Assembly (NCBI GenBank): GCA_046563655.1
Contig: CM102284.1
Span: 3,968,001-4,032,000 of the forward strand
Source: Yuukianura sp. NJ FZ-2021
Taxonomy: Eukaryota
DNA length: 64,000 nt
Direction of reading: 5' to 3'
The notes below the pieces were generated by a model that made no database searches, was not told the DNA's origin, and was given only the letters and a program-made list of their open reading frames with translations. A program made the position numbers and the translations under genes. Positions within the stretch are counted from its first letter, which is position 1; each line of letters starts with the position of its first letter. Below are positions 4,158-44,450 of the stretch, in pieces.

Positions 4158-7100
4158 TCACTTTCTAATTTTGACGTTTGAATTTTGAGTATTTTTGCGT
4201 TGTCCGGTTTCGTATGGTGACGTGGTAAGGATCTTCGAAGTGTCTTTCAGGTGAAGCTTTTGTATTAAATCAGTAAAAGTTATGCCAGTATCTGCCACTG
4301 GAGGAACTGGAGGTGCAGCCTTCGGCGTAGGAAGTAGTTGAGTCTTCCGAGGAGTCAAAGCTGCCACACGTTCTCGTGCTGCGTGCTTTGTCAGAAGTCT
4401 ACAATAACAAAAGCATTCAGATTATGACATCATAGTACTATTTTGCGTGTAAATACTCCGAAGTTCTACCCTGGCCAATCGGCGGCGTCCCGGTTTAGTT
4501 TCTTCCCATTGACCAAGAGATCGTTGTTATGAAAATACGAAAAATTTAGGGTTAGAGGATTCTGACGAAAAATGAGCTCGAACATCCCAGTATCAGCATT
4601 TCGGTCAGCTTTCCGATCCACCACAACTGAAAAAATGCAAAACGAAAGTTAAAACTCAATGCAATTGATCACAATGGTTGACCTGGACAGTACGAAGTAT
4701 TGATAAATCTCTTACCTTTGATCGTATCTTCCAAGCATTGGGCACACAACTGCAAAAATCAACGTAAAATAGTAAAATTAATGAAATAACAAATTTACTT
4801 AATTGCTGTTTGGAATCATCTGAGATTTTTTCCATTAACACTTACGCGAGCAGTGACACTGGTACTTCCGGCCATACATGGACAGGAGTTAATTTCAATT
4901 AGCCACGGCTTGAAATCTTCCGTAAACATGTAATCAGCACCGTAGAGTTCAAAACAGTTCTTCTTCGCTTCCGAAGAATCTTGCGATGCCAGCAAAATCC
5001 CCAGAATGCCTTGCTTCATGCCTGGATAAATCACTTTTTCCCACATGTCCAGCTTCCCGATGCTCCTGAAAGTAATATTTAAGCTAGAAGTTAGCCAGTA
5101 CCATCAATAACAGTGAAACTGTCGTCAGCTATAGTTAAATCAATGCGTATTTTCTTACTTGAGATACGCCTGGAAGGTGTGGCAGTCCCACATGTTTTCT
5201 TCAGGCAAACTGGGATCACGATTTGGCGCATTGGAATATTTGCACTGGACTGCATTGTTACAGAGATGGATACTTTCATGGAAGTCTTCCAAGCTGAAAG
5301 GCTTAGTGCAGAAACGAACATAACTTTCCCTACAAAAGTTAAGAAAAATATTTGTAATCGAATCAACAATTGTAAATTTCACAAAGACAAATGAATGACA
5401 AAAAATTTACTTTGCAAACCACACTGTTAGCGGTGCCCAGTCTGTAATAATGAACCACTGACGCATGTCGAATTTCGTCTTGTAAATCAGCATTGGCTTT
5501 TCAATGTACTGCAAATCAAATCAAGAAACATCACATTAAAGTTTAACTATTTGCTGGGAATTTAACAGTGTTGCGTGTTGCTTTGCTTTACCTTCTGAAC
5601 GACCCAGTTAGCTTCTCTAGCCTGTGATTGGCTGAGTAGTCCCATAATCTGATCCAACTGATTCATAATCACGATTCCTTTACCACGAGAGCGAGCACCT
5701 AAAATCGACAAACAAAAGTGTTGCAAAACTTCAGTTTAATTAAAACTCCGATTTTACGTCACTATCCCAAAGAAATGCTTTTTAGCCTTTACCTGGCTTG
5801 CAGATCCAAACATTCATGATCCCATCAGCAGTCATGGTTCCCCACACTTGAGATAGCGCTTGAAGCGTCTTTTTGATGGTGCTATACTTGGCCTACAAGA
5901 ATGCAGCAGTTAAAAGTGGACACTAAATTCAAAATACAAAATTTCTTCAGCTTTTTCGCGACATTTCTTCACCTTAATTGTTTCGGACATCTCCGATGGA
6001 TTCAGTTTAGATTTTTGATGGACAACGCTGTAGTATTGTGTCAGAAACATTTCCCAGTGTTGACTCAAGTATGCAGGAGGAAGTAGCCAGTCGATGTCTT
6101 CATGGTGGCGCATTCGGACGTAATTGTTGACTTGCCTCACAGCAAAGTCCAGTGAAAGACTGCTTACTTTGGAAGTGGTGTCAAACACACCTCTTTCCGC
6201 AAACGATTCGTAGTTGTTGCAAAACCAACGCAAGAGCCCAATACAAGCAGTTAGTCGGTAGTCGTCTAAAAATGCTTGTTTTTCTTCCTCCAATGACAGT
6301 CTGTAGCACCGTGGAAAGTAGGTAGCAGAAACACCGGGATCGCTGAACCAGTGTATAGACTGGAGACAGGAAGCAATTCCAACCTAATGAACAAAACTTA
6401 CACAATTATCATATAACTTGCGGAAGTAGCGGTATTAATTTGCAATGTACTCAACATTTTGCATTACCTTGGTTGTGAAATAGGCTCTCGGGAAACGATT
6501 AATAATTTGGTCATGTTGCATTTGTACCCATGGGATATTGTCCCTCCGAATGACCCAAATAAAATCCGGAGCATAGTTGGTCAGGACATGTTGCGTGTAC
6601 GCATTCTCCGAATTGTCTTCTGAACTGGGCCTTGTGTCTACATCTGAAAAGCGAGAGGTCAATATTGGTTATGACAAGATACAAATATCACGGTGGAGAA
6701 TTGCAATATAACGGTTTACTTTTGATCAAATGCGGACTGATGATTGACCTCATGTACTGCGGAGAATTTGTATTGACAATCTTCTCTATCCATCCACGCT
6801 TCCGAAGTGCAGCTCGTACGGCTGGATACGCACCTCCCATGCAAAAGACTTTATTCTCCTGCAAAAAGATACAATCGATTACTTTTAAGTCTTGGAGGTG
6901 TAAGTGAACAGTTTGTTTTACCTTAATGGCTTTGTCTACATGGGCAATATGGCTAGCGCTTATTAGTTTCGAGAATTTTGTAGAAGGGGAATTTGGTAAG
7001 ACAGATCGAGAAGTTCTGTACGTGTGGTCAACCGTTGTGCCGTTTCCATTGATGGATCCTCTCGAACTCGGCCTCGACTTCCCCGTGGACGAAGTTGATG

Positions 7101-22548: not shown

Positions 22549-22568
22549 CTCTCGCTTTCATCCTCTTC
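22549..22568 (+). promoter_or_regulatory. Polypyrimidine TCT/TOP-like initiator candidate for RpL5
   Basis: CTCTCGCTTTCATCCTCTTC lies about 65-85 nt upstream of the RpL5 ATG. Ribosomal protein genes typically initiate in such tracts. Confidence 0.45.
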
Positions 22569-22632
22569 AATGCGGTAAAAAGTGCCGTCAGTTTCTTGGA
22601 TCAATCGTTTTTCATCTGTTACATCAGTAATT

Positions 22633-24149
22633 ATGGTAAGTAAATTGATAATTGAGCAATTAATCACTTAGTTGTTATTGCGGGGCGAGGGGCTGGGAGA
22701 TAGAATCATTTCAGTAATATGTAGATTTAGAAAATCGATGTTCAAAAAAATCAAAAATCAAATGTTCTATGAAGAAGCGCAAATGAATCCCTCCGGGCGT
22801 TTCACTAATATATTTTTAATTTTTAAAATTTGTTATAGGGTTTCGTGAAAGTGGTCAAGAATAAGGCTTACTTCAAACGATTCCAAGTCAAGTTCAAGAG
22901 GCGACGTGAGGGACGTACGGACTACTATGCAAGAAAACGTCTAATTGTTCAAGACAAGAACAAATATAATACACCAAAGTATCGCATGGTTGTTAGAATT
23001 TCCAACAAGGATATAACCTGTCAGGTAAATTCGGTTTTCTATTTACTTTTTACTTTTAGTCAGGTAACAAACGTCTTTAATCTTTCGTTCATTCGCTCTA
23101 TCGGACTCCGAATTTCGGAGTAATCACAAGTAAACACTTTTGGGGCAATTAAGTAATAAGAAGTTTTTATCTGATTGCAGATCGTGTATGCCAGATTAGA
23201 AGGTGATGTTGTTGTATGCGCGGCTTACAGTCACGAACTGCCACGCTACGGTGTCAAAGTCGGTTTGACCAACTACTCTGCTGCTTACTGCACCGGGTTG
23301 TTGTTGGCAAGAAGAGTAAGTGCTTTAGTCAAACTTTTTTTTCCATGCAATGTTAGCATTTTACGATTAAGAATAGTTGAGTTTTGAACTATTATTTTTG
23401 TGTTGCGTAGTTGCTGAAGAAGTTCGGTTTGGACACAATTTACGAGGGCAAGAAGGATGTCACTGGAGACTACTACTGTGTTGAATGTATTGATGGTAAG
23501 CCCAAGGCCTTCCAAGCCGTTCTTGACGTTGGCTTGTACAGAACTACCACTGGGGCACGAATCTTTGGAGCTCTGAAGGGAGCCGCCGATGGTGGCATTG
23601 ATATTCCCCACAGGTACGTTTTTTTTTCGTTTGGCGGTCGTATGCTATAGCTTTCTTGTACTCATACTGTTGAACTAAATCCTTGACTGTTATTTTTTTT
23701 TTTATAGTGAAAAGAGGTTTCCTGGCTGGGACGGCGAGGCCAAGGAGTTGAACGCTGAACTCCACCGTAAACACATCATGGGTCAGCATGTTGCTGAGTA
23801 CATGAAAAATTTACTGGACGAAGACGAGGATGCTTACAAGCGCCAGTTCTCCCGCTTCATCAAGGAAGGAATTGGTTCGGATAACGTAAGTTTTTTTTTA
23901 CACGCATGTCTTTCAATTTTTTTAATTAATTTTCTTCTTGTATCCCAGTTGGAAGGAATCTACAAAAACGCCCATGCCAACATTCGAGCTAACCCTGATC
24001 CTCTGAAGAAGACGAAGGACACCAGTAAGATCACCAAGAAGCGGTGGAACCTGAAGAAGCTCTCGGGAGCCGTGAGAAAACATCACGTCCAGCAAAAGAA
24101 GGCAGTGTTTCTCAAAAACCTGAGCAATGAAGCGGAAGTTGCTGCCTAA
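22633..24149 (+). CDS. RpL5: 60S ribosomal protein L5 (uL18)
   Basis: ATG|gtaagt (ATG-only first coding segment), then [81 protein letters not shown]. Confidence 0.98.
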
Positions 24150-24312: not shown

Positions 24313-26237
24313 TTAGTTACTGGAGGATGAGGATGACGTGGGGCTGGACGAGTCGTGTCTTTCTAGAATAGGGGAGGGTGACGAGGAGCTTGACGAGTTC
24401 CAACCAATGTCTAGCGGCAAACTATGTCGCTGGTAAGAGCTGCTACTTGTGTCGTCTTGTCTTGGATTGACGATGAGGTTGAGGTTAGCTCTCCGAGGCA
24501 AGGTTAGGCTCCGTCTAAAGACATTTAGTCTAGTGCTGGTTCCTGGAGGCAGTTCAGAGTATGGTGGTAGTTCTGGCGGCCGAGTGACTTCGGACTCCGA
24601 CTTGGTCCGGACTTCCGGTTCTCCAGGCTGATCGTTCGGACCTGGAATTAAGACGCTTGAACTGGATTCAATGTTTCCGTTGTCAGTGGCAACAGCCGGA
24701 GCATTAGTAGCGGCCGAGATAACCAGCGATATGCCTTCCAGCGGCTGAGTGGAAGGAAGACCAGAATCTGGTGGTGCTGAAGCAGTACATTCAGTAGTGG
24801 TACTCGTTTCTTCTGGCTTTGTTACTCGTTGAACCTGCACTTCCGCCAGAGGTGGCGGGGCAGGGGGATTGATAGGTATGGAACTGGAAGTAATTGCTTC
24901 TTCATAAGGTGGTGGAGCTTCTCCAGTAGGATAGTAGGCCTTCCTCCACCAAGCAGCATACTGTGGTGGATATCCAAAACCGGAAGTTCTTCCAAAGTCG
25001 TGAATAGCATAGTCCAGGCTCCGACTGTCGTCACAATCATCGTAAATTCCTCTACCGGGTCTCCGTGGTTCAGAAAGTGAGTTCAAGCGACCTAATTAAA
25101 ACAATTTCCAGAAATGTGAATCATTCAACATTGGAGATTAAGTTTGACTTACCTCTCTGTCTCAAGCGATTGACGAGGAAGAAGAGGAGCGAGATGGAGA
25201 GGAGTGACAAGATGGCTGTAATAATGATCTTGGGTACCACCACGCCCATGTCCACCGGCGATGGTGGCATTCCGTTGGTGAGCCAGTCATCTTCCGGGCA
25301 CACGAACTGAAATTCGCAACACGAAGTCCCAACACGCGTCGGCTTGCAGTTCTGCACAACACAAAAACGACATCAACGAAAGTTAAATTAAAACCACATT
25401 ACCACAAATCAATTAGTATTTATTCTTCTTCAAGTCAGGGTGGGGTCAACGCCCTTAGCTTTACATTTTACTTCAAGAATGGAGTGTGAAATAAAAAAAA
25501 ATCATGTTACTTGATTCGATCAACTCTTATTTTTCGACTTTAAAGCACCCAATTTAAAAATATTTAAAAAATCGTACTTGGTTAATAGACTATAATAGCA
25601 GGGGTGAATGAAACGCTACTAAATATAAAAAATTATTAAAATTTAAAAAAAAAGATGCACTAGCCGAGACTCGAACTCGGACCTCATGCTTGGCAAGCAT
25701 GAATTCTACCCTTGAACCACTAGTGCCTAGTTGAAGAGAGTCTGAATTTAAAGCCGTCTTGAAGAGAAATTTAGTTCTGCTTGAACGGATAAGTAACACA
25801 CAAGGAACTTGGAACTCATTGCAAACACAATTCCAATTGTTGTCATTTTTATGTCACAATAAACAACGTGCAGTTTCAATTTTAGCAAACGTGGATGAAT
25901 GAGCAAATGCTCAAATTACTCAGAAGAAAAAATAACAGAAATGGAATATGTATTAACTTTAAATCAAGCTAATTAAAGTGAAAGTTTTTACCCGCTTTTC
26001 TGGAGGTTGTCCACAGAGAATTGCTCTGCACAACTGTGGTCCTCCAATGTCACAGACACATTGGACACACGTATCCGGTCCAGGAACGAAGTGGACACCC
26101 CTTGGAATCACCCTCCCTTGAACATCAATGCAATGGGCACCAACGATCCCGCCTCCAGCTCCTGGCCCTTCCGGAAGTATCACTGGCACTTCACTTCCAG
26201 CTCCAATACTCACATTGTGGAAATTCAATATCGACAT
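24313..26237 (-). CDS. Integral membrane protein DGCR2/IDD-like (VWC domain, single TM helix, PPxY-containing cytoplasmic tail); 5' end uncertain
   Basis: CIDVQG..FVPGPDTCVQCVC..GPQLCRAILC..CCEFQFVC (VWC-like), TM IIITAILSLLSISLLFFLV, tail with PPPYEEA and LPPYSE. Confidence 0.75.
25656..25726 (-). tRNA. tRNA-Gly(GCC), inside an intron of the DGCR2-like gene
   Basis: GCACTAG TG GTTC AAGGGTA GAAT T CATGC TTGCCAA GCATG AGGT CCGAG TTCGAGT CTCGG CTAGTGC A forms a complete cloverleaf with anticodon GCC and A/B boxes, followed by an oligo-T Pol III terminator. Confidence 0.9.
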
Positions 26238-34040: not shown

Positions 34041-34559
34041 TTATTGACGCGTTAAGCGGTCTTAACTGAAATACAAATAAAATATGAATTTTAAATTTTG
34101 AATTTTTCGAATTTCGAATTTTGCTTACAAAATTACGTATTAGCTGTTATTGGTTTTTTGCTAAAAGTTGGGGGGTGACTAATCCTCAGATCCGCCGGTG
34201 CATGCTGACATAATCTAGCCAAATTTTTGGAATTCCTTTCACTACCACAACAACACAAAAGGGAAATTCGAACGACAGATGGGTATTACTAATAGTAAGT
34301 CCGGTCCGATTGAAATTAGGGTAAAATAGGGTAAATTTATATTCGTAAATCATCATCGTTTTCGTTGTTGTCACTACACTACTCACTACTCACCGGGGTT
34401 CGGGTAACTGCTAATTTCCTTATTCTGTTTTAAATTTTACTTGACCTGCTGTTTAGATTGAGTTAATATCGTTGAATTGACACTTGACAGCTACGTACTA
34501 CAGTTTCATCGGTATAAGAAGACGTAATTAATCAATCCAGTGTAATTACTAGTTGAGAG

Positions 34560-36089
34560 ATGGAGGACATATTTGGTGATCCATTTGGTAAACCGCTGCC
34601 GCCAGTTCCAAAAGTTTATAAAACCGGAATTGCTAAAATGCCACCAATAGCTGAATCTGATAAAATGGTACACCGTAGCGATGATCCGGAGGCGAAGAAG
34701 AAGAGGAGGAGGGTTACATCCGTTGTAAGGAGAGTGTCAGAAATCGACAGGCCTTTATATACTGAACGTCATTTCCGACGACACGTAAGCAAGCACTACT
34801 CCATGAACTTTACAGGAGAAGTAAACGTCTGACTTAAAAATGTAACTGGTGTTCCAGGTTCCGAATGCAGCGGATGTGATGCGTCGAGCTCTCCTGATGG
34901 GGCCTCCCGCACCGCCGCCCGATACCAAGCCCTGTTGCTCTTCAACAGTTCCGAAAGAGAATATGGCCGACGTTTTTAATCGTCCACAAAACGTAAGTGG
35001 CCCTGTGAAGATTCGTACAGTAAGGACAGCAATCAGATCGTACATTCGGCCATTTGACCAAAAGTGCTCTACCTCGGTCGACGAAACAGGTATGCCGTTT
35101 ACGAATTTTGCTAATAACTTAATCCGTAGCAGAGTATAGACTATAGAGTTCACTTTAACTTAACTAAGAGTTACTTTAAAGACACAGCAGCCATAGGAAG
35201 TGATGGTCGTTCGATTGAACAAACCTTTGGAACGAAGGCAGTCGATCTGCAGGATCCGAGTTCCAGTACCAATGTCGGCCGCTGTGTAACTATTGAAGAC
35301 GCGCTGAACTCAGATGAGAATGCATCACATTTCGCTATGGACTCATCGCTTATGGATTTCGATATGGCTGACGTTTTTGATCGTCGTCAATTTGCTGATG
35401 GGCCTGTGAAAATGCATCCAGTAAGAGAAGTAATCAAACCGGCAATCAAACCTAAACAAATTCCACCCGTTGAACAAACGGGCTTTTCCTCGGACGACGA
35501 AACGGGTATGCCTATGCCTTTTTCGAATTTTGCTAGTATTTAAGTATTCCCTATTTATTAGCTGGAGTTGCCTAACCTAACTAAGAGTTAACTATATTAA
35601 TTCAAAGACACTCCAACCACGGAACGCGATTGTACTAGTCCTATTGAACAAAGCTTTGATACTGAGACAGTCGACGTGAACGAGCCAAGTCCCAGTGCCA
35701 ATGTCAGCCGCTGTGCAACCATTGAAGACGCTCTGAACTCTGGTGATAGTGCATCATATTTCGCTAAGGATCCATCGCTGAATTCGGATTATGCGGACCT
35801 GGAAGTAAGCGATCGATGTATTTCCGAAACTTCATCTCACTCTAACAGTAGCTCGTCTTCTGATGTTTATACAATTGATCGCAACACCCAACCGGAGAAT
35901 GTCATACGGGAACCTTTGGAATCTGATGAAAGTTCGGACGAAGTGTTCACTGAACAGTCATTTGACATTGGAACGACATGTACATCCAGCGACCTCGAGA
36001 CGCCGATAAAGAGTCCAAAACCTTCCCCTAATAAGAAACCGTGGTTCATGACTCCACTGGTCGACGATGAACTTGACTACGAATATTAA
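34560..36089 (+). CDS. Uncharacterised, largely disordered protein with two internal repeats (4 exons)
   Basis: Four in-frame exons can be joined with GT-AG sites (about 34560-34820, 34858-35088, 35181-35506, 35608-36089). Contains a KKKRRR NLS-like patch and a Ser/Asp/Glu-rich C-terminus; no recognisable domain. Confidence 0.6.
34961..35795 (+). repeat. Tandem duplication of about 400-430 bp including an intron
   Basis: ATATGGCCGACGTTTTTAATCGT (34961) vs ATATGGCTGACGTTTTTGATCGT (35362); GACGAAACAG|GTATGCC vs GACGAAACGG|GTATGCC; ATTGAAGACGCGCTGAACTC vs ATTGAAGACGCTCTGAACTC. Confidence 0.88.
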
Positions 36090-36589
36090 TTGTACAACTA
36101 AAACTGTTTCAAGTTCGAATTTTTAGAAACCGATGTACCCGGCTCGTTTAGTAGTAAGTACCGCACTTAAAGTACGCAACTCGTATCATATACGAGGTAA
36201 GTCATTTCTACGTCAGATTAGACAGCGTGTCGCCGATCTGTTCCAGCCACATAGTTTAGTTTTGTAATTAGTTTTCAACTTTTCACGGTTAGGTTAACCT
36301 AACATTTTTTTCAGCTCTTACTGTTATTCTTACTGCTCCAGAAGCAGCTATAGTTAAGTTCCGTAGATTAATGGCTGGCACATTAGCGTATTTTAGATCT
36401 AGGATGTTAGTCCTTCGGGTCCGAATGATTCTTGTATCATAGTATTTGAGAAGCGGTAAATTCTAACGGATTCCGACAAACAACTTTACGATTTGTAAAA
36501 ATAAATTTCAGCAAATGTAGGAGACAAGTAGAATGAGATAATTTCAATGTCATTTTACTGTAGAAAAAAAATCCGAATTAGTGTGAATT

Positions 36590-38460
36590 TTATGATTTCG
36601 TAACGTAGATTCCCGATAGAATGTAGCCACCAGTTGGACTCATGTTAATTTCTGGATGTGTTCGTTCCGGCTGTACCTGAATGTTGCGGTACCAGTTGTC
36701 AACGATGTTCAGATTTATCCCACCGTTTCCATCTTTCAGCCACAGGAAACAATCTCCGAGAGGCTGAAAAAGAGAGTTTCAGAAATACAAAAGGCGACAG
36801 TTTAAAAAAAATCGTATATCACCTCTAGAAATTGACAAAAGATGACAAATGGAGCTGATCCTCTGAGTCTGGGTAATAAGTTTTGTAGAATCGTTAGCGG
36901 ATGCTCTTTGGCACAAATAATGAGGCCATCAAATTCTGTACTGTTCAGAAGTGCTGCAGAAGCTTCGTTCTCAAAGCGGGTAACGGTTTTTACGGACTCC
37001 AGCGTTTTGGTTTCTTCTGCCGGAGGAGTTTCGTTCACTTTCGTTGATTCATCGCATTCTTCAGCAACTATTTTTGGTTTTTTGCTCGGTGATGGCTGTG
37101 TGATGTCTTGAGAATCATCGGCGACTTCGTTCGTAGGTTCACTTCTGGTATGTCGGATGATGTAAAACAAATCTAGGGTCTGAAGGGGTTTAAGCTGTTC
37201 TGGGCCAAAGTTCATGTAGTAGAGTGCCTGCCTAAAGAAATTGAGTTATGATTTGAATTCTATTTTTCTTGGATTGTACTCCTAGTTTTACCTCTGTGGC
37301 ATACTTCCAGTATGAATGTGAAGACACAGACCCTGTCCGCCTAATCTCTGCAAAACTCCAGCGACGACGAGGCTAGAACATCCCGTTTCGTACACCATAT
37401 ACCTTCCACCAGAAGTAATGTTTGAATATGTGAGCAACTGAGCCAGAGAATCCGATCTCAGGTTCCTGTTCGTAGATACAAAGCTTTACAATTTGTATAA
37501 AGGTTATATCATAATATGTAATTGACGACCACTTACATCACCTTACTCGCATCCATCTTGAAGTAGTAGTCTGAAATATTTTTGAGTGTTGGTTTCACAA
37601 AGAACAGACAGTCCCCATATGTGCGAACTTTCTTCTTGAGGTATTTTTCTTGAGAAAACTCCGTTTTCTGCGTAAACGTTTTTGATTTGGTAATCAATGC
37701 GCCCAGAATCTCTGGACCGGAAACCCCTTTCTCGCGAAGTACAGCAATATCCGATTGTCGTAATGGTTGCGATTTGTTGTCATCCATTATATTTCTGTTG
37801 TCTTTCCCGCTGGTTGTATTGTCTGGAAGCAAATAATCATTTTGTAATTGCAAATCTCTTGTTCACTTATTATACCAAATTGCCGATTTGATTTACAGCA
37901 ACTAAACGGCATACGTTTTAGGTTTACTTTAAGATTCACCTGCGCTAAATGGTGTCTCTTGCATTGCTTGCTCCGTATATGGTTCCAAGTAGCACCGCTT
38001 CTTTTTGCTTTTGTCTTGACCTTCGACGACATTGGAATGTTGAACACGAAATGTCGTATAAAACGGATGTCCGAGGGCATTCCTTAGTTCGATTTCTTGT
38101 TGTTCCTTTCCTCGACCAAATCTTAATTTCCTATTGGATGTTAAAAATTCAGCGAATTAGGTATTACAATCGTAACTCTTTGTTAAAGTTATTTATAACT
38201 AAAATACAAAACTTAATTAATTTAATTAAATTAAAAATTAAATTTTTTAATGATAAAAGCAGCAGACTGCTTGTCTCCTCTCATTTGCATATTCTTTCCT
38301 TATTGTTTCCCGCGCTCCAAAAATTTGAAATTGTCAACATAACATACCCTTCCGCCTTGACTTCGACAATTTTGTCTTGTTCCCCTCTTTGGATCAGAAC
38401 AAATTGACCTTCCGTAATAACATCTCCTTCCACAGTCGGTGACCTTTCAGTGACCTCCAT
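36590..38460 (-). CDS. TRMT6: tRNA (adenine-58-N1)-methyltransferase non-catalytic subunit
   Basis: SGKDNRNIMDDNKSQPL..KSKTFTQKTEFSQEKYLKKK, NLRSDSLAQLLTYSNI, FDGLIICAKEHP..SAPFVIFCQFLEPL, RNIQVQPERTHPEINMSPTGGYILSGI. Confidence 0.93.
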
Positions 38461-38475
38461 CAAGAATCTAACGGT

Positions 38476-39146
38476 ATGCCAGGCGAAAAACGGAAGTTGG
38501 AAGAGGACACGTTGATATCACCACAATACAAGAAACAGAAGGGAGACGAACAACAAAACAGAAATCCTCACAGTAATGTTTACTGTGAGTCCGTCTAAAA
38601 GCTACTTTTGTACACTTAGGTTCTTGTCACCTATAACCGTGATGGGCATCTTGAGCTATTTTAAGTGCAATTTAATTAATTGATTTTTTTTAGAGGTTAA
38701 TTGATTTTTTTTTCAATACTAGACTTGACACTAGCGAAATTGAGAAGTGGAGCAAGATGTTTCTACGAGAAGTTGACTAGTCAAGCGACGATTGGAGTTA
38801 TGGAAGAAACTGGTAATCCAATGTCTTCGTCATCGCTGGAAATCATGCCAGCTCAACAGCGATTTTCCTGCGAAACGTGTTCCAGATTTAGTAGAAACGC
38901 TTTGCAGATTCCAAGCGTCGTTTGTACCTACTGCGAAAAGCAAATTTGCCATCACAATTTATGCAGCCGTTGCAAATTTGGCTTCTGCAGTTCGTGCTGT
39001 TTCCAAAAGTGAGGAAATATTTCCTGGAATTATGTTTGATCATTTCAAAATCGAAACTAGACTCATAAAGAATTTTTATTGTTTGCAGTTATGATGACGA
39101 TGACCCTCTATCGGATCAATTCGTTTGCATCGGATGCCTGGCTTGA
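38476..39146 (+). CDS. Siva-like apoptosis regulator / Cys-rich zinc-binding protein (3 exons)
   Basis: MPGEKRKLEEDTLISPQYKK...HSNVY|YLTLAKLRSGAR (donor T|GTGAGT at 38585, acceptor TACTAG near 38722), then CETCSR..CTYCEKQICHHNLCSRCKFGFCSSCCFQ|NYDDDDPLSDQFVCIGC, the Siva cysteine spacing. Confidence 0.75.
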
Positions 39147-40121
39147 AAAAATTCGTTTCCTGCTACAACGTATTAATTCTCTGCGTTTAACTGAGATTCG
39201 GTCGTCATTTGTCAACGTCTCGTCATTGAAGTGAAACTCACTTTGTAAAGTCATTCGGTTGTTCGTTCATAGGACAAAGTGTTAATTTCAGTGCATTAAC
39301 TAGCATATGCTGGAAGAACAGCCCAAATGTCCTTTTGCAAATTGCAAAAATGGGAATCTCAAGGCGTCATCCCATTGTTTTTAATGTTTAACTGGTTTCT
39401 TTTATGATAGGTGTTTCTGTTTGCTTACTTTTGAACGGAAATGAATTTTTCAATAATTGGAATCCAATAAAAATGGCCGCTTTTTCATCCCTGTTCCAGC
39501 ATAATTTGGATGAACCTTTGTTTCAGAAATGTCAAACTCTTAAAAGAATCTTTTTAGCACTGATGAAGCCGCAGAAGTGGAATTAAATTTGAGATTAATT
39601 AATTTTTATTAATGCCTTTATTTTTTTTAGAATTTTTACAGAGATGAAGAAATGCTTAATACTGTCACTTGTTATGTCCGTCCGTCCATACATCTTTTGT
39701 TTACATTCAAATTCAACACAAGAGCACAGCTGACGAGAGACGAAGGTCAGCCCGTCTCGTGTATTATTCGGTTCGTTTATCGTCAGTTTTAATTATACTT
39801 GTGTTAGAATAGTTTGATTACCCAGCTACTCTTACCAACTAATTAACATGCGATGTTGAGGTGTGGCTGTAGCGAAGAACGGGGTGTTTACCCCGTTCTG
39901 TAAGGATATAGGTGATTGGGATCCTGTCAAAAGCGAAGTTATTACAGTATTTCTTCTAAATCAAATCAGCTGTATCAGGTAGGAATTGTTGACATTTCAT
40001 AAAACGACAGAATCTCTGGCACATACGAAGGGTGCTCCTCAGCGATTCCTAACCTAAAAATTGCAAAAAAGTTTAAGAAATTGTGAAGTGTTTGTAGGCT
40101 CCACTGATCCAGTCAAGTAAA

Positions 40122-43100
40122 ATGTCACAAAAACCCACGAAGACTACAATCGCTGTAAAGGCTGGAGAGAATGAAGTTGAAAGGGCGAGGGATATGGGGG
40201 ATTGGCGAAAAGTCATTGAACTCCTGGAAGCGGGTCGAGCCGGGAAGCAAGTCAACACTGGACCAGGCGACATCTTGGCCAATTTCCTTCAGTCAGAGGC
40301 CAAGTTGGAAATATGGCTGGAAGAAAGTCAACCACTGGAAAAGGCTACGAAAGCAAAGTCTGCCCTTGTAGATGTCAAGAAAGGTCTTCAACTTGTCCTC
40401 AGTCATACCGGAGACCAGGTCAGCCATACTAAACAGCACAAATTGGCCATTTGAAGTAGTATTGCAGTAATGGTTTGTTATTTCTGCAGTCTGGACTGAA
40501 GACGGATGTTCGCGTACTTTTGGCAAAGGTATACTACACGTCTGGATTGTATGAAGAGGCACTGGATGAGCTGGAGAAGTCTGGAATCATGGGGGTATCG
40601 GAATCGGGTCAAAGTGTTCGTAACGTACAGCTTATGGCTGAGTCTCATGCTATACGAGCACATAGTCTGGAAAAGGTAACGTGGTAGTGTATTGTAGTAC
40701 AGCTAACAATTAACTAATGTTTTATTTTTCATTTTAGGTTGGTAAGTCGCTGAGAGGAAAGAATCTGATGTCCGAAGCAGAACGTAAAAAGGAGACCCTT
40801 CGATGTTACAATCGAAGTGCCGACTTGGCTCTTCAATTTTTCCAAGCCCAGGAAAGGCTGTTCGCCAGTATATTTCCAGCTCCTTCTGGTAACTTCACAT
40901 TTCCAAATGTCAATATCACTTTGAATAATAATACGACCTCAATTTCTCCGACAGGTATTTCATTTAATCTTTCAACTCCAGCTAGTTGACACAAAATCGC
41001 TTTTGCTCTGTGTAGCTACTAGCAAGTTGATATCCAGTGTTCACCATAGTATGCCAGTTTTTTAGTCACAAGATCTGCACAAAATCTAGGTTGATAGTTT
41101 TGAAGAACATGGACAGAGTTTTTACGTTTCGTAGATTTTTTCAGCACGGTGTACTGTACTACTAGTTCTTAAAACCGATTGTGTTTACGCAAAGTGTTGT
41201 TGTAAAGATGAACCAAATGCTCACGCGCTTATAATTGTATTTATAGTTTACTTTTCGTTAATTGGTTTTAGTCGATTAGCTGCTTATGTTTCTTGTTGTA
41301 TATTCCAGGTACAACGTCGCCCCATCTGCAATTCTGGGAAAAGCGAAGACCGTCGGCTTTGTTCGACCATGCCATTCGTCGTGGTCCTATACTCCTAATT
41401 GAAGATGGAAAATTGGACGAAGCGATTCTTCGAATCGGGAAGTTGTGCCGGACGTACGACACAAATTCATTTACTCCAATTCGACTAGGATTTTATCGTC
41501 GCTTAGCAGAGGTTCTCCTTCGTCACAAATTTGTTCCAAGTAAACTCACTGCCCTGGAAGCAAGTGGAACTCATACCAAATTTCATACCAGTGCGGGTCT
41601 GTTTGCTCCCAAAAACGTATGGGAGGACATTATTCTGGCTCTACTTCTTGCGTAATTCGTTTTAACACACTAATTAAACATCACTTCATTCAACTAATTC
41701 TTTTCAGTTTGATAAGTCTAAGATAGTGCCACTCAAAGTTTGGTTTTGATTTTGCAGAGAATCTATAGTAGTCAAAGAGGGCGTTCTCAATCAATCTCCT
41801 GAATTTGAAAAAGCGAGAAAGTTGGCCAACAGTAACGCTGCTGTCATTTATGACCTTCTATCTCTGGCTGCTGCTCGCTGGTCACAATACCAATTAGTGA
41901 ACGAGGTAATGACGATGATGTATGAATTCGCGACGTTGATTCGACTTCAATTAGGTTACTCAATTATTGGTGACAGGGATTCGAGCAAGCGCTGAAATTT
42001 TCGTTTGACGAGCCTCATATCTGGTCACAATACGCCCTTACCTTTGTTGCTGCTGGAACCAATTCCACAAAAAGTTTTCAAACTTTGGTAGAAGCATCGA
42101 GATTGAATTCCAAACCTACGCCATTTTTGTTGCTGTCAGCTCAGCAAGCTTTCAAACAATCGAAAGTAAAGCGTCCTCTATCATAGAATTTGTTTTCGAA
42201 TTTTCTTGATTCTGACTTTATGCTATTTTTTAGACAGAGGAAGGCATTAGAATTGCCCAAGTAGCAAAATCTAAGGAACAAGCAGGAACCCAGAAATTTC
42301 TCAGCAGAGCGTTGTTACATGAAGGGATTGGATACTTCCTGCTATCTTTCGAAAAGGAAACAAATCAGCAGCGTTTAGATGCACGACAATCGGCACTGGC
42401 TTCATTGCAGTCGTAAGATTTGATAAAGTTTACCTTCAACAGCTTCATGTAGCCTTTTCGGCTGTTTTGTAGGGCTGCTGAAATGGACCCTCTTGATCAC
42501 TTGACACTTCACTGGTTGGCAAGAGTTTACGCCTGGACTGGAAACATTGACGATGCTTTCAATGTTGCCGTCAAGGCTCTCAAGGCGTATCCTTTTCATT
42601 TGCCATCGCTGCAACTTATTGTTCTCGTACTTTCGGCTCAGCGGAACTATCCAGATGCTTTAGCTGTAACTGAAGAAGCTCTCGATGAATATCCGGATCA
42701 TCTGGGATTGTTACAGTTGAAAGCTGCTTTAGATGAAGAATTACTCGGAGCTGAGGTGAGTGCAAGAAGTATTTCCTCAAACTTTTGGTTTTGGCTTCTA
42801 GAAATAAGATGTTTTTACTATGGTTTGAATTCCAGACGGCGCTTCTAACGGTTCGTCAAATGGTGGTTGTGTGGAAAGGACTATTCGAAGACACTTATGG
42901 ACAATTGAGAGGTGACAGTCCAGAACAAAAGTCGTTCGGAGGTTATGGAACGCTCCAACTCCCGTCTCCACCGGTGGATCGTGACGGTGGCTGTAAGTCA
43001 AACAATCCGAGACACATTTTTACATAACAGTACTTTGAAATTGTTAATTTTCCTATTCGTTTTCTTAGCTTTGGCATCGTTTCGTGCAGCGTCATTAGCC

Positions 43101-43951
43101 GGTTCCTCCACAAACACAGGAACGCTTACGGCGGGATTCCGGACAGACGCAGCCTTGTCCGAAATTGCTTCATCGGTCAGCATCAATGTACAATAAAATC
43201 CAAAAACCCGCTTTCTCATGGCGAGAAATTCTCTATGCTTTAACTTTTGATTTATCCTTTGCAGGGAATTACGTGTCAAATGACTCCAGGGGACCTGGTC
43301 TGGACAGCACAAATCAACATTTGGATTATGCTGACCGATTTGTATTTGAAACTCAATCAACCTGACCAAGCAGCGCTATCGATTGATGAGGCTGGACAAA
43401 TCGCTCCTATCCATCCGGACGTATTGTTCTGGGTAAGTTAATCTTCCGAACCGGGACTTTTTTTTAGTACTATCAAAAGCTTTCGTGGGAATTCAGGTTA
43501 ACTTTTTCATTTTGAAATGTTCCAGCGCGGACAAATTGAAGAACACCAAGAAAATTATGGAGAGGCTAAACATTGGTACGAAGGTGCTGTTGCTATAAAA
43601 CCTACTCATATAAAGGCCCTTCAGGGTCTCTCCTTGATGCAGCATTACAGCGGCTCGCATCGTCTTGCAGAAAAGTTTCTGCATGAAACACTGAAGTTGG
43701 ACCCCTACAACCATCATACTTGGTCAGTATTTACGAACTTACGTTAGTAATTGAATCAATTACACTGATTAGTCTGAACTACCTCTTAAATCACAATTGC
43801 TTCTTCCTGTTTAACTAGGTACAACTTGGGAAAGGTGCTGGAAGCCTTGGGCGAATGGTCTGAAGCCGCAGATTGCATGGCAACAGCTCTCAAGATCGAG
43901 GCTACGAAACCAATTTTGTCCTACTCAATCATTCCAATTTGTTTTGAATAA
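40122..43951 (+). CDS. TTC7: Tetratricopeptide repeat protein 7 (PI4KA complex subunit)
   Basis: ENEVERARDMGDWRKVIEL, FAPKNVWEDIILALLLAES, VIYDLLSLAAARW, FSFDEPHIWSQYAL, SLQLIVLVLSAQR, IWIMLTDLYL; C-terminus ALKIEATKPILSYSIIP. Confidence 0.92.
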
Positions 43952-44450
43952 ACGTAGTAAGTAACATCATAACTATAGTAAGCATCTATCAACCTCTCTA
44001 GATATTCTGGTATGGTTTTGGAAACTAGTTTTTGTTGACCAGAAATCCAGCATTTTTTGCAGTGCAAACCAACTGAACTGAAACTAGAATTAGATTAACC
44101 ATGAGACCGATTTACTCTTACCTCGACGTGACTCCAAGCTTAAGTTTAAGCTTAAGCAGAGGAAAAGCGTGCCCAACGTCTGCGTCTATTATTGCAATTA
44201 GACGCTTCCCAAATGAACCAAGTATGCCTAGAATGAGTAGCCCAAAACAAAAGACCAGTTGACCTTCAATGATATTTCATAACAAAAAACATTGAAACCT
44301 GCTTAGCATCTCCCTCTTAATTTTTTATCCCGCTGACTCCGCACATTTCTTAGCCATGTGCTGGCGTAGTTGTTGTGCATCGGAACATAGATTCCTCGGA
44401 ACTCTGGAAAGTAAGACGCAAACACGTAAGGCATTACGACACTGGAAATC

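Follow-up and report, generated by a model that had tools for sequence, protein, structure and literature searches.

A conserved, closely spaced head-to-head pair of TRMT6 and a Siva-like gene in the genome of Yuukianura sp. NJ FZ-2021

Background

Classical bidirectional promoters have transcription start sites (TSSs) that point away from a shared nucleosome-free region of about 100-200 bp, and the two transcripts do not overlap. Divergently paired genes and bidirectional promoters, with TSSs less than 1 kb apart, are common in animals (PMC1487180, PMC2670823, PMC3483549). Human protein-coding pairs which overlap at their 5' ends constitute a further described class (PMC8076222, PMC11890862); this overlap is reported to be unstable, to depend on the TSS and to be poorly conserved (PMC8076222), and one such pair has been dissected mechanistically (PMC11890862). 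The present study deals with a 64,000-nt stretch of the genome of Yuukianura sp. NJ FZ-2021 (contig CM102284.1, positions 3,968,001 to 4,032,000 of the forward strand; hereafter the window), in which the start codon of TRMT6, on the minus strand, and that of a small Siva-like gene, on the plus strand, lie head to head and are separated by 15 nt.

Bidirectional promoters resemble this locus in the head-to-head orientation, in having one partner of the housekeeping type and in the conservation of the pairing; a distance of 15 nt between the ATGs, however, cannot accommodate the geometry of the classical form. With the human 5'-overlapping pairs the locus has in common that divergent protein-coding genes possess 5' regions in the same DNA, from which a shared promoter region is expected. 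The difference is that in the present pair the structure itself makes the sharing obligatory, that coding exons would be involved and that the arrangement is kept in two species, the RNA overlap itself being predicted from the genomic arrangement. The arrangement is a common one, of which this locus is an extreme instance that can nevertheless be explained, and we read it as a 5'-overlapping divergent gene pair. Human TRMT6 is itself paired head to head with MCM8. A literature search on both names did not find a TRMT6/Siva pairing in print, the matches listed being co-mentions in cancer or RNA-modification contexts.

Results and discussion

Start codons of the two genes

The TRMT6 start codon reads as CAT at nucleotides 38458-38460 (minus strand) and the Siva-like ATG occupies 38476-38478 (plus strand), exactly where the first-pass annotation of this DNA had placed them. 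The two protein-coding genes are on opposite strands with their 5' ends facing, which makes them a divergent pair. The window represents a compact, intron-bearing animal genome (GC about 40%; introns mostly about 45-90 nt) with about 18 genes per 64 kb, or roughly one per 3.5 kb. On the rough Pfam map of 131 open reading frames (ORFs) from which this density was taken, the other neighbouring genes on opposite strands are roughly 1-2 kb apart and other neighbours in general about 0.5-2 kb, and the TRMT6/Siva-like pair is an outlier in spacing for its own genome.

TRMT6 is the non-catalytic subunit of the tRNA m1A58 methyltransferase, the catalytic partner being TRMT61. The gene contains two exons with matches to Gcd10p (PF04189; cut-off 27), one at 37533-37862 (93.6 bits, E-value=1.5e-26) and one at 37288-37485 (49.8 bits, E-value=3.3e-13). 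Its coding exon 1, for which phmmer found no match among PDB sequences at E<=10 when used alone, aligned with the N-termini of 8 of the 9 homologs in alignment A1, the remaining one (P0002) being without that part, and shows 49% identity to P0001, a protein encoded on a transcript-like contig of 2151 nt. Joined to exon 2 it gives an open frame which aligned to P0001 residues 12-98 (E-value=1.6e-21). The proposed start is the sole in-frame ATG before a conserved I-T-E-G-Q-F-V-L-I-Q-R-G-E-Q block, and an in-frame stop is present further upstream. Judged by these alignments the TRMT6 start codon is genuine.

The three exons of the Siva-like gene combine into a coding sequence of 453 nt, which specifies 150 amino acids without an inner stop. 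This product aligned end to end (residues 1-150 with 1-146; 50% identity, E-value=1.3e-47) with P0048, a 164 amino acid protein encoded on a transcript-like contig of 916 nt. An exhaustive phmmer search yielded three proteins for this gene, P0048 being the best (E-value=2e-15); a homologous-protein search with exon 2 revealed no candidate, and one with P0048 returned only itself, on the same 916-nt contig. The peptide of exon 1 aligned to P0048 (residues 1-30) from Met1 onwards, with 18 of 36 residues identical (E-value=1e-7), and the match to P0048 runs across the join of exons 1 and 2. Judged in the same way, exon 1 is coding and nucleotide 38476 is the start. The earlier statement that both first exons splice in frame agrees with this. 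A downstream start was rejected for either protein, as the conserved N-terminal blocks are not preceded by any other in-frame ATG.

Conservation of the arrangement

A degenerate-pattern scan of metagenome contigs using the Siva-like alignment gave two loci, L001 and L002; an earlier metagenome scan using P0001 had found no relative. L001 is a 10.7-kb portion of a 23.7-kb contig from a related species, and encodes P0049 exactly, with TRMT6 on the opposite strand. By tblastx, nucleotides 36565-43980 of the window are collinear with 3152-10513 of L001, the order being TRMT6 (minus), Siva-like (plus) and TTC7 (plus). The start codons in L001 are at 4976-4978 (TRMT6, as CAT) and 5001-5003 (Siva-like). 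The first-pass annotation had proposed that the distance between the ATGs be compared among related genomes; the same head-to-head pair shows 15 nt here and 22 nt in L001. Exon phases and intron positions are common to both sequences, including the donor and phase of Siva-like exon 1, and the first ten Siva-like residues are identical (10/10). The introns vary in length: 217 versus about 115 nt for TRMT6 intron 1, and 138 versus 169 nt for Siva-like intron 1.

A blastn-short comparison of the window with L001 found no conserved block in the first introns, in the spacer or in the intergenic DNA between the Siva-like gene and TTC7; the best matches were 7-13 nt long with an E-value of 0.07 or worse. 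Among codons at identical residues 46% are themselves identical, indicating that the two are far apart at silent sites. Because the non-coding blocks cannot be aligned and codon identity is just 46%, the tight spacing has outlasted near-saturating divergence. Conservation of the pair is thus documented by one relative, and the same arrangement in the collinear L001 is, on this comparison, beyond chance. An artefact of assembly or of the gene models was rejected as well, since L001 is an independent contig with the same arrangement. L002 (nucleotides 1-1141), from the same metagenome, contains a second, more divergent Siva-like homolog that is 28% identical to P0048 across exon 2. The acceptor before this exon is at about 322, and neither Siva-like exon 1 nor TRMT6 is present in the 325 nt of upstream sequence, which is uninformative either way.

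DNA almost certainly shared by the two transcription units

Scanning ribosomes require a leader, and a core promoter of some 70-80 bp is necessary for RNA polymerase II. With the ATGs 15-22 nt apart there is no room for two outward promoters together with separate leaders, and therefore each TSS, or at least each core promoter, must lie in DNA transcribed by the other gene. Some DNA is almost certainly shared between both transcription units. The first-pass annotation had remarked that there was almost no room for a bidirectional promoter plus two 5' untranslated regions, and the 15-nt spacing, its close counterpart in L001 and the ATG-free stretches found upstream of TRMT6 in both species all agree with that view. 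The geometry leaves three options, namely crossed start sites, leaders spliced on at acceptors beside the ATGs, and leaders of a few nucleotides.

Over the 186 nt that precede the TRMT6 start in the window, and over 160 nt in L001, the minus strand contains no ATG; these stretches take in the whole of Siva-like exon 1 and reach into its intron. The window as a whole has one ATG per 60 nt, gaps of at least 187 nt making up 5% and those of at least 220 nt 3%; the density antisense to coding sequence is one per 62 nt. This ATG-free stretch fits a putative TRMT6 leader that crosses Siva-like exon 1. On the plus strand, 223 nt without an ATG precede the Siva-like start in the window.

Since a leader as well as a core promoter of about 70-80 bp is required, we favour crossed TSSs. 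TRMT6 transcription would then begin within Siva-like exon 1 or further out, and that of the Siva-like gene within exon 1 or intron 1 of TRMT6. Both transcription units, and in all likelihood the mature 5' leaders as well, would be antisense to the first coding exon of the partner, and the pair would act as a single shared bidirectional promoter region with its elements within transcribed and coding DNA. The likely consequence would be ordinary co-regulation, as in other 5'-overlapping pairs, with no special switch. A conserved, extremely tight divergent pair with crossed TSSs and a shared bidirectional promoter region is, in our estimate, a reasonably probable description of this locus. Given that the ATGs are just 15 nt apart and that the stretches before them are free of ATG, the mature mRNAs are also likely to overlap at their 5' ends.

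Several observations weigh against crossed TSSs. In L001, plus-strand ATGs are found 10 nt upstream of the Siva-like start and at 4872, the former opening a two-codon upstream ORF (ATG GTG TGA, 4991-4999), absent from the window, that ends one base before that start; the Siva-like leader there must therefore be very short or tolerant of upstream ATGs. The 15-nt spacer is not conserved in L001 by blastn-short. The first exons also lack any sign of embedded sequence-specific promoter or RNA elements in a synonymous test of 36 codons: where the residues in the window and L001 are identical, 17 of 36 codons in the first exons are identical, as are 459 of 1003 in the other exons of TRMT6, the Siva-like gene and TTC7 (Fisher p=0.87; low power). 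Extra synonymous-site constraint, which the first-pass annotation had named as a point of comparison, was thus absent from the first exons.

Possible alternatives: spliced leaders, very short leaders and a downstream start

The 5' end of one or both mRNAs might instead be gained at an acceptor just before the ATG, either by removal of a cis intron from the 5' untranslated region or by spliced leader (SL) trans-splicing. Primary transcripts would then cross the partner gene, and the mature mRNAs need not be antisense. In both species, acceptor-like YAG trinucleotides are indeed found a short distance before each of the two ATGs. On the minus strand these are 7 nt from the TRMT6 ATG in the window (14 of 20 pyrimidines) and 26 nt from it in L001 (16 of 20, sites with at least this count being found at only 0.51 per kb per strand), and the real acceptors of the locus score 11-14 on the same count; the L001 spacer is without a minus-strand AG, and its nearest candidate lies across the Siva-like ATG. 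On the plus strand they precede the Siva-like ATG by 25 and 40 nt in the window (13 of 20 pyrimidines each) and by 38 nt in L001 (12 of 20). Some arthropods, copepods among them, use SL trans-splicing (PMC4664967), and an ESM Atlas lead points toward Siva clusters rich in arthropods.

These acceptors, however, do not occupy conserved positions in the window and L001, and no conserved upstream non-coding exon is detectable. Pyrimidine richness arises automatically because the coding sequence on the opposite strand is purine-rich (66% and 62% purine); the Lys/Glu/Arg-rich Siva-like exon 1 of the window has 66%, compared with 50% for the window overall. YAG preceded by at least 14 of 20 pyrimidines occurs 351 times on both strands of the window, or 2.74 times per kb per strand. 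In RPL5, also in the window, a YAG 5 nt before the ATG would leave an exon of 8 nt, showing that such sites arise by chance. Over the whole window Rfam revealed a single tRNA; SL RNA and all other families were absent, although an SL gene could equally be located elsewhere in the genome. Leaders spliced on beside the ATGs are accordingly considered unlikely.

A more specific version was contained in the first-pass annotation, in which Siva-like exon 1 doubled as the antisense acceptor of a TRMT6 leader intron. The features on which it was built are present: the exon is purine-rich, and CCGTTAG ends 7 nt before the TRMT6 ATG, with its AG at 38468-38467 (the first base after the AG having been given as 38467). 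The role as acceptor is unsupported, as the site has no counterpart in L001 and, at the frequency given above, nothing singles it out.

Were both genes to initiate within the spacer of 15-22 nt, back to back, their mRNAs would not overlap and only the core promoters would extend into the exon of the partner. Such leaders would render harmless the L001 ATG found 10 nt before the Siva-like start, provided that the leader was shorter than 10 nt. An Inr-like TCAGTG (38447-38452), aligned with CCAGTA in L001, hints at Siva-like leaders of 27 and 40 nt, which would still cover 12 nt of the TRMT6 coding sequence. The two leaders taken together, however, could not exceed 15 nt here or 22 nt in L001, and scanning ribosomes recognise an AUG poorly when it lies within about 12 nt of the cap. 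The spacer is without conservation that would mark a shared initiator, and this reading would not explain why such long stretches before the TRMT6 start are free of ATG in both species. We therefore regard initiation by both genes within the spacer as improbable. A start of the small gene at the in-frame ATG at 38800, with plus-strand exon 1 unused and hence no tight pair, would account for the lack of any Pfam match in that exon, but it is close to refuted by the alignment of the exon 1 peptide with P0048 from Met1, by the junction mirrored across the join in P0048 and by the ten residues, donor and phase kept in L001, and is highly improbable.

Promoter-like motifs and possible coupling of expression

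Three motifs were noted post hoc, the Inr-like one given above among them. An E2F-like core, TTCCCGC, is present in TRMT6 intron 1 at 38307-38313, and the homologous intron of L001 has TTGGCGC at 4797-4803, which is the only match to TTSSCGC in its 10.7 kb. The E2F core is not enriched in the window, with 20 found and 15.5 expected. An ETS-like sequence, ACGGAAGT, at 38490-38497 falls within codons 5-8 (Lys-Arg-Lys-Leu) of the Siva-like gene; its equivalent in L001 is ACGGAAAC at about 5015-5022. It could be a promoter element in coding DNA, or merely the codons of a conserved basic motif.

A stronger form of the crossed arrangement would be an obligate, selectively maintained "interlocked" promoter. 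The core promoter and leader of each gene would reside inside the first coding exon of the other, expression would be coupled by polymerase collision, R-loops or a 5' RNA duplex, and the ETS-like and E2F-like sites would serve both genes. We hold this to be rather doubtful. If true, the animal lineage in question would have its capacity for tRNA m1A58 methylation tied to a regulator of cell death. The first-pass annotation had suggested that transcriptional interference or double-stranded RNA could couple m1A58 methylation with apoptosis, and no evidence for this was obtained here.

Relationship of the small gene to Siva

Siva is a CD27-binding, apoptosis regulatory protein, and the assignment of the small gene to it proved to be weaker than the first-pass annotation had assumed. 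With Pfam Siva (PF05458) no match was found on the window exons at E<=1. The homolog P0048 gave 12.4 bits (E-value=0.13), which is below the gathering cut-off of 26.2 bits, and P0049 gave no match. The weak P0048 match spans positions 109-169 of the 173 in the profile, i.e. the C-terminal Cys-rich part, and in alignment A2 of Siva-like exon 2, 8 of the 33 invariant columns are Cys. In the ESM Atlas the first match was a Siva cluster (0.91; 188/256 features) and the ten best family-bearing matches were all Siva, which is a lead and not a test; PF05458 occurs in 54-74% of the members of the nearest clusters, again as a lead only. The gene product resembles Siva in its small size and possibly in its C-terminal Cys-rich region, which in Siva is zinc-binding, and differs from it in that the Lys/Arg-rich N-terminal exon has no demonstrated Siva counterpart. 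The small Cys-rich gene is a probable distant relative of Siva, the Atlas leads standing in support of the earlier identification and the sub-threshold Pfam score against it. Human SIVA1 is reportedly a target of p53 and E2F1.

The N-terminus of the Siva-like protein (Met-Pro-Gly-Glu-Lys-Arg-Lys-Leu-Glu-Glu ... Lys-Lys-Gln-Lys), specified by exon 1, is like a bipartite nuclear localisation signal, and is kept in P0048 and L001.

Coordinates and other features of the window

The features of the pair are listed in Table 1.

Table 1. Features of the TRMT6/Siva-like locus, in nucleotide positions of the window
Feature	Position	Strand	Description
TRMT6 (Gcd10p family), remaining exons, approximate span	36596-38130	-	Located by Pfam Gcd10p, tblastn with P0001 and tblastx collinearity with L001
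TRMT6 intron 1	38131-38347	-	217 nt; GTATGT...CAATAG; exon 2 begins at 38130
TRMT6 coding exon 1	38348-38460	-	113 nt; 37 codons + 2 nt; phase 2; donor GTATGT at 38347-38342
Spacer between the start codons	38461-38475		15 nt; CAAGAATCTAACGGT; equivalent in L001 22 nt, without detectable similarity
Candidate 3' splice site of the first-pass annotation	38467-38490	-	TTTTTCGCCTGGCATACCGTTAG followed by ATT; 14/20 pyrimidines; position not conserved in L001
Siva-like coding exon 1	38476-38584	+	109 nt; 36 codons + 1 nt; phase 1; donor GTGAGT; Lys/Arg/Glu-rich N-terminus
Siva-like intron 1	38585-38722	+	138 nt; GTGAGT...TACTAG; no conserved block past the donor
Siva-like exon 2	38723-39008	+	Holds the Cys-rich region; phmmer P0048 2e-15, P0049 3.6e-9
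Siva-like exon 3	39089-39146	+	Stop codon TGA at 39144-39146

Elsewhere in the window, a multi-exon gene at 34557-36089 (plus strand) is without a Pfam match and contains internal repeats, e.g. M-A-D-V-F-[ND]-R-[PR]-Q ... G-P-V-K. From the end of this gene to the 3' end of TRMT6 the distance is about 500 nt. The first exon of the RPL5 gene (22553-22850) ends right after the ATG at 22634-22636, which is followed by GTAAGT. Upstream of it a pyrimidine-rich stretch, CTCGCTTTCATCCTCTTC, resembles an initiator of the TCT/TOP type. The tRNA gene (25656-25726, minus strand; Rfam, 65.9 bits) lies between RPL5 and an importin-beta-like gene.

Significance

For annotation the locus calls for caution, as automated gene callers may drop either first exon. 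If RNA data confirm that the start sites are crossed, the pair would represent a clean animal example of an unavoidable and conserved 5' overlap, where most human cases are optional and TSS-dependent. It would then also be a convenient locus at which to ask whether overlap of this kind leads to interference or co-activation, or has no effect.

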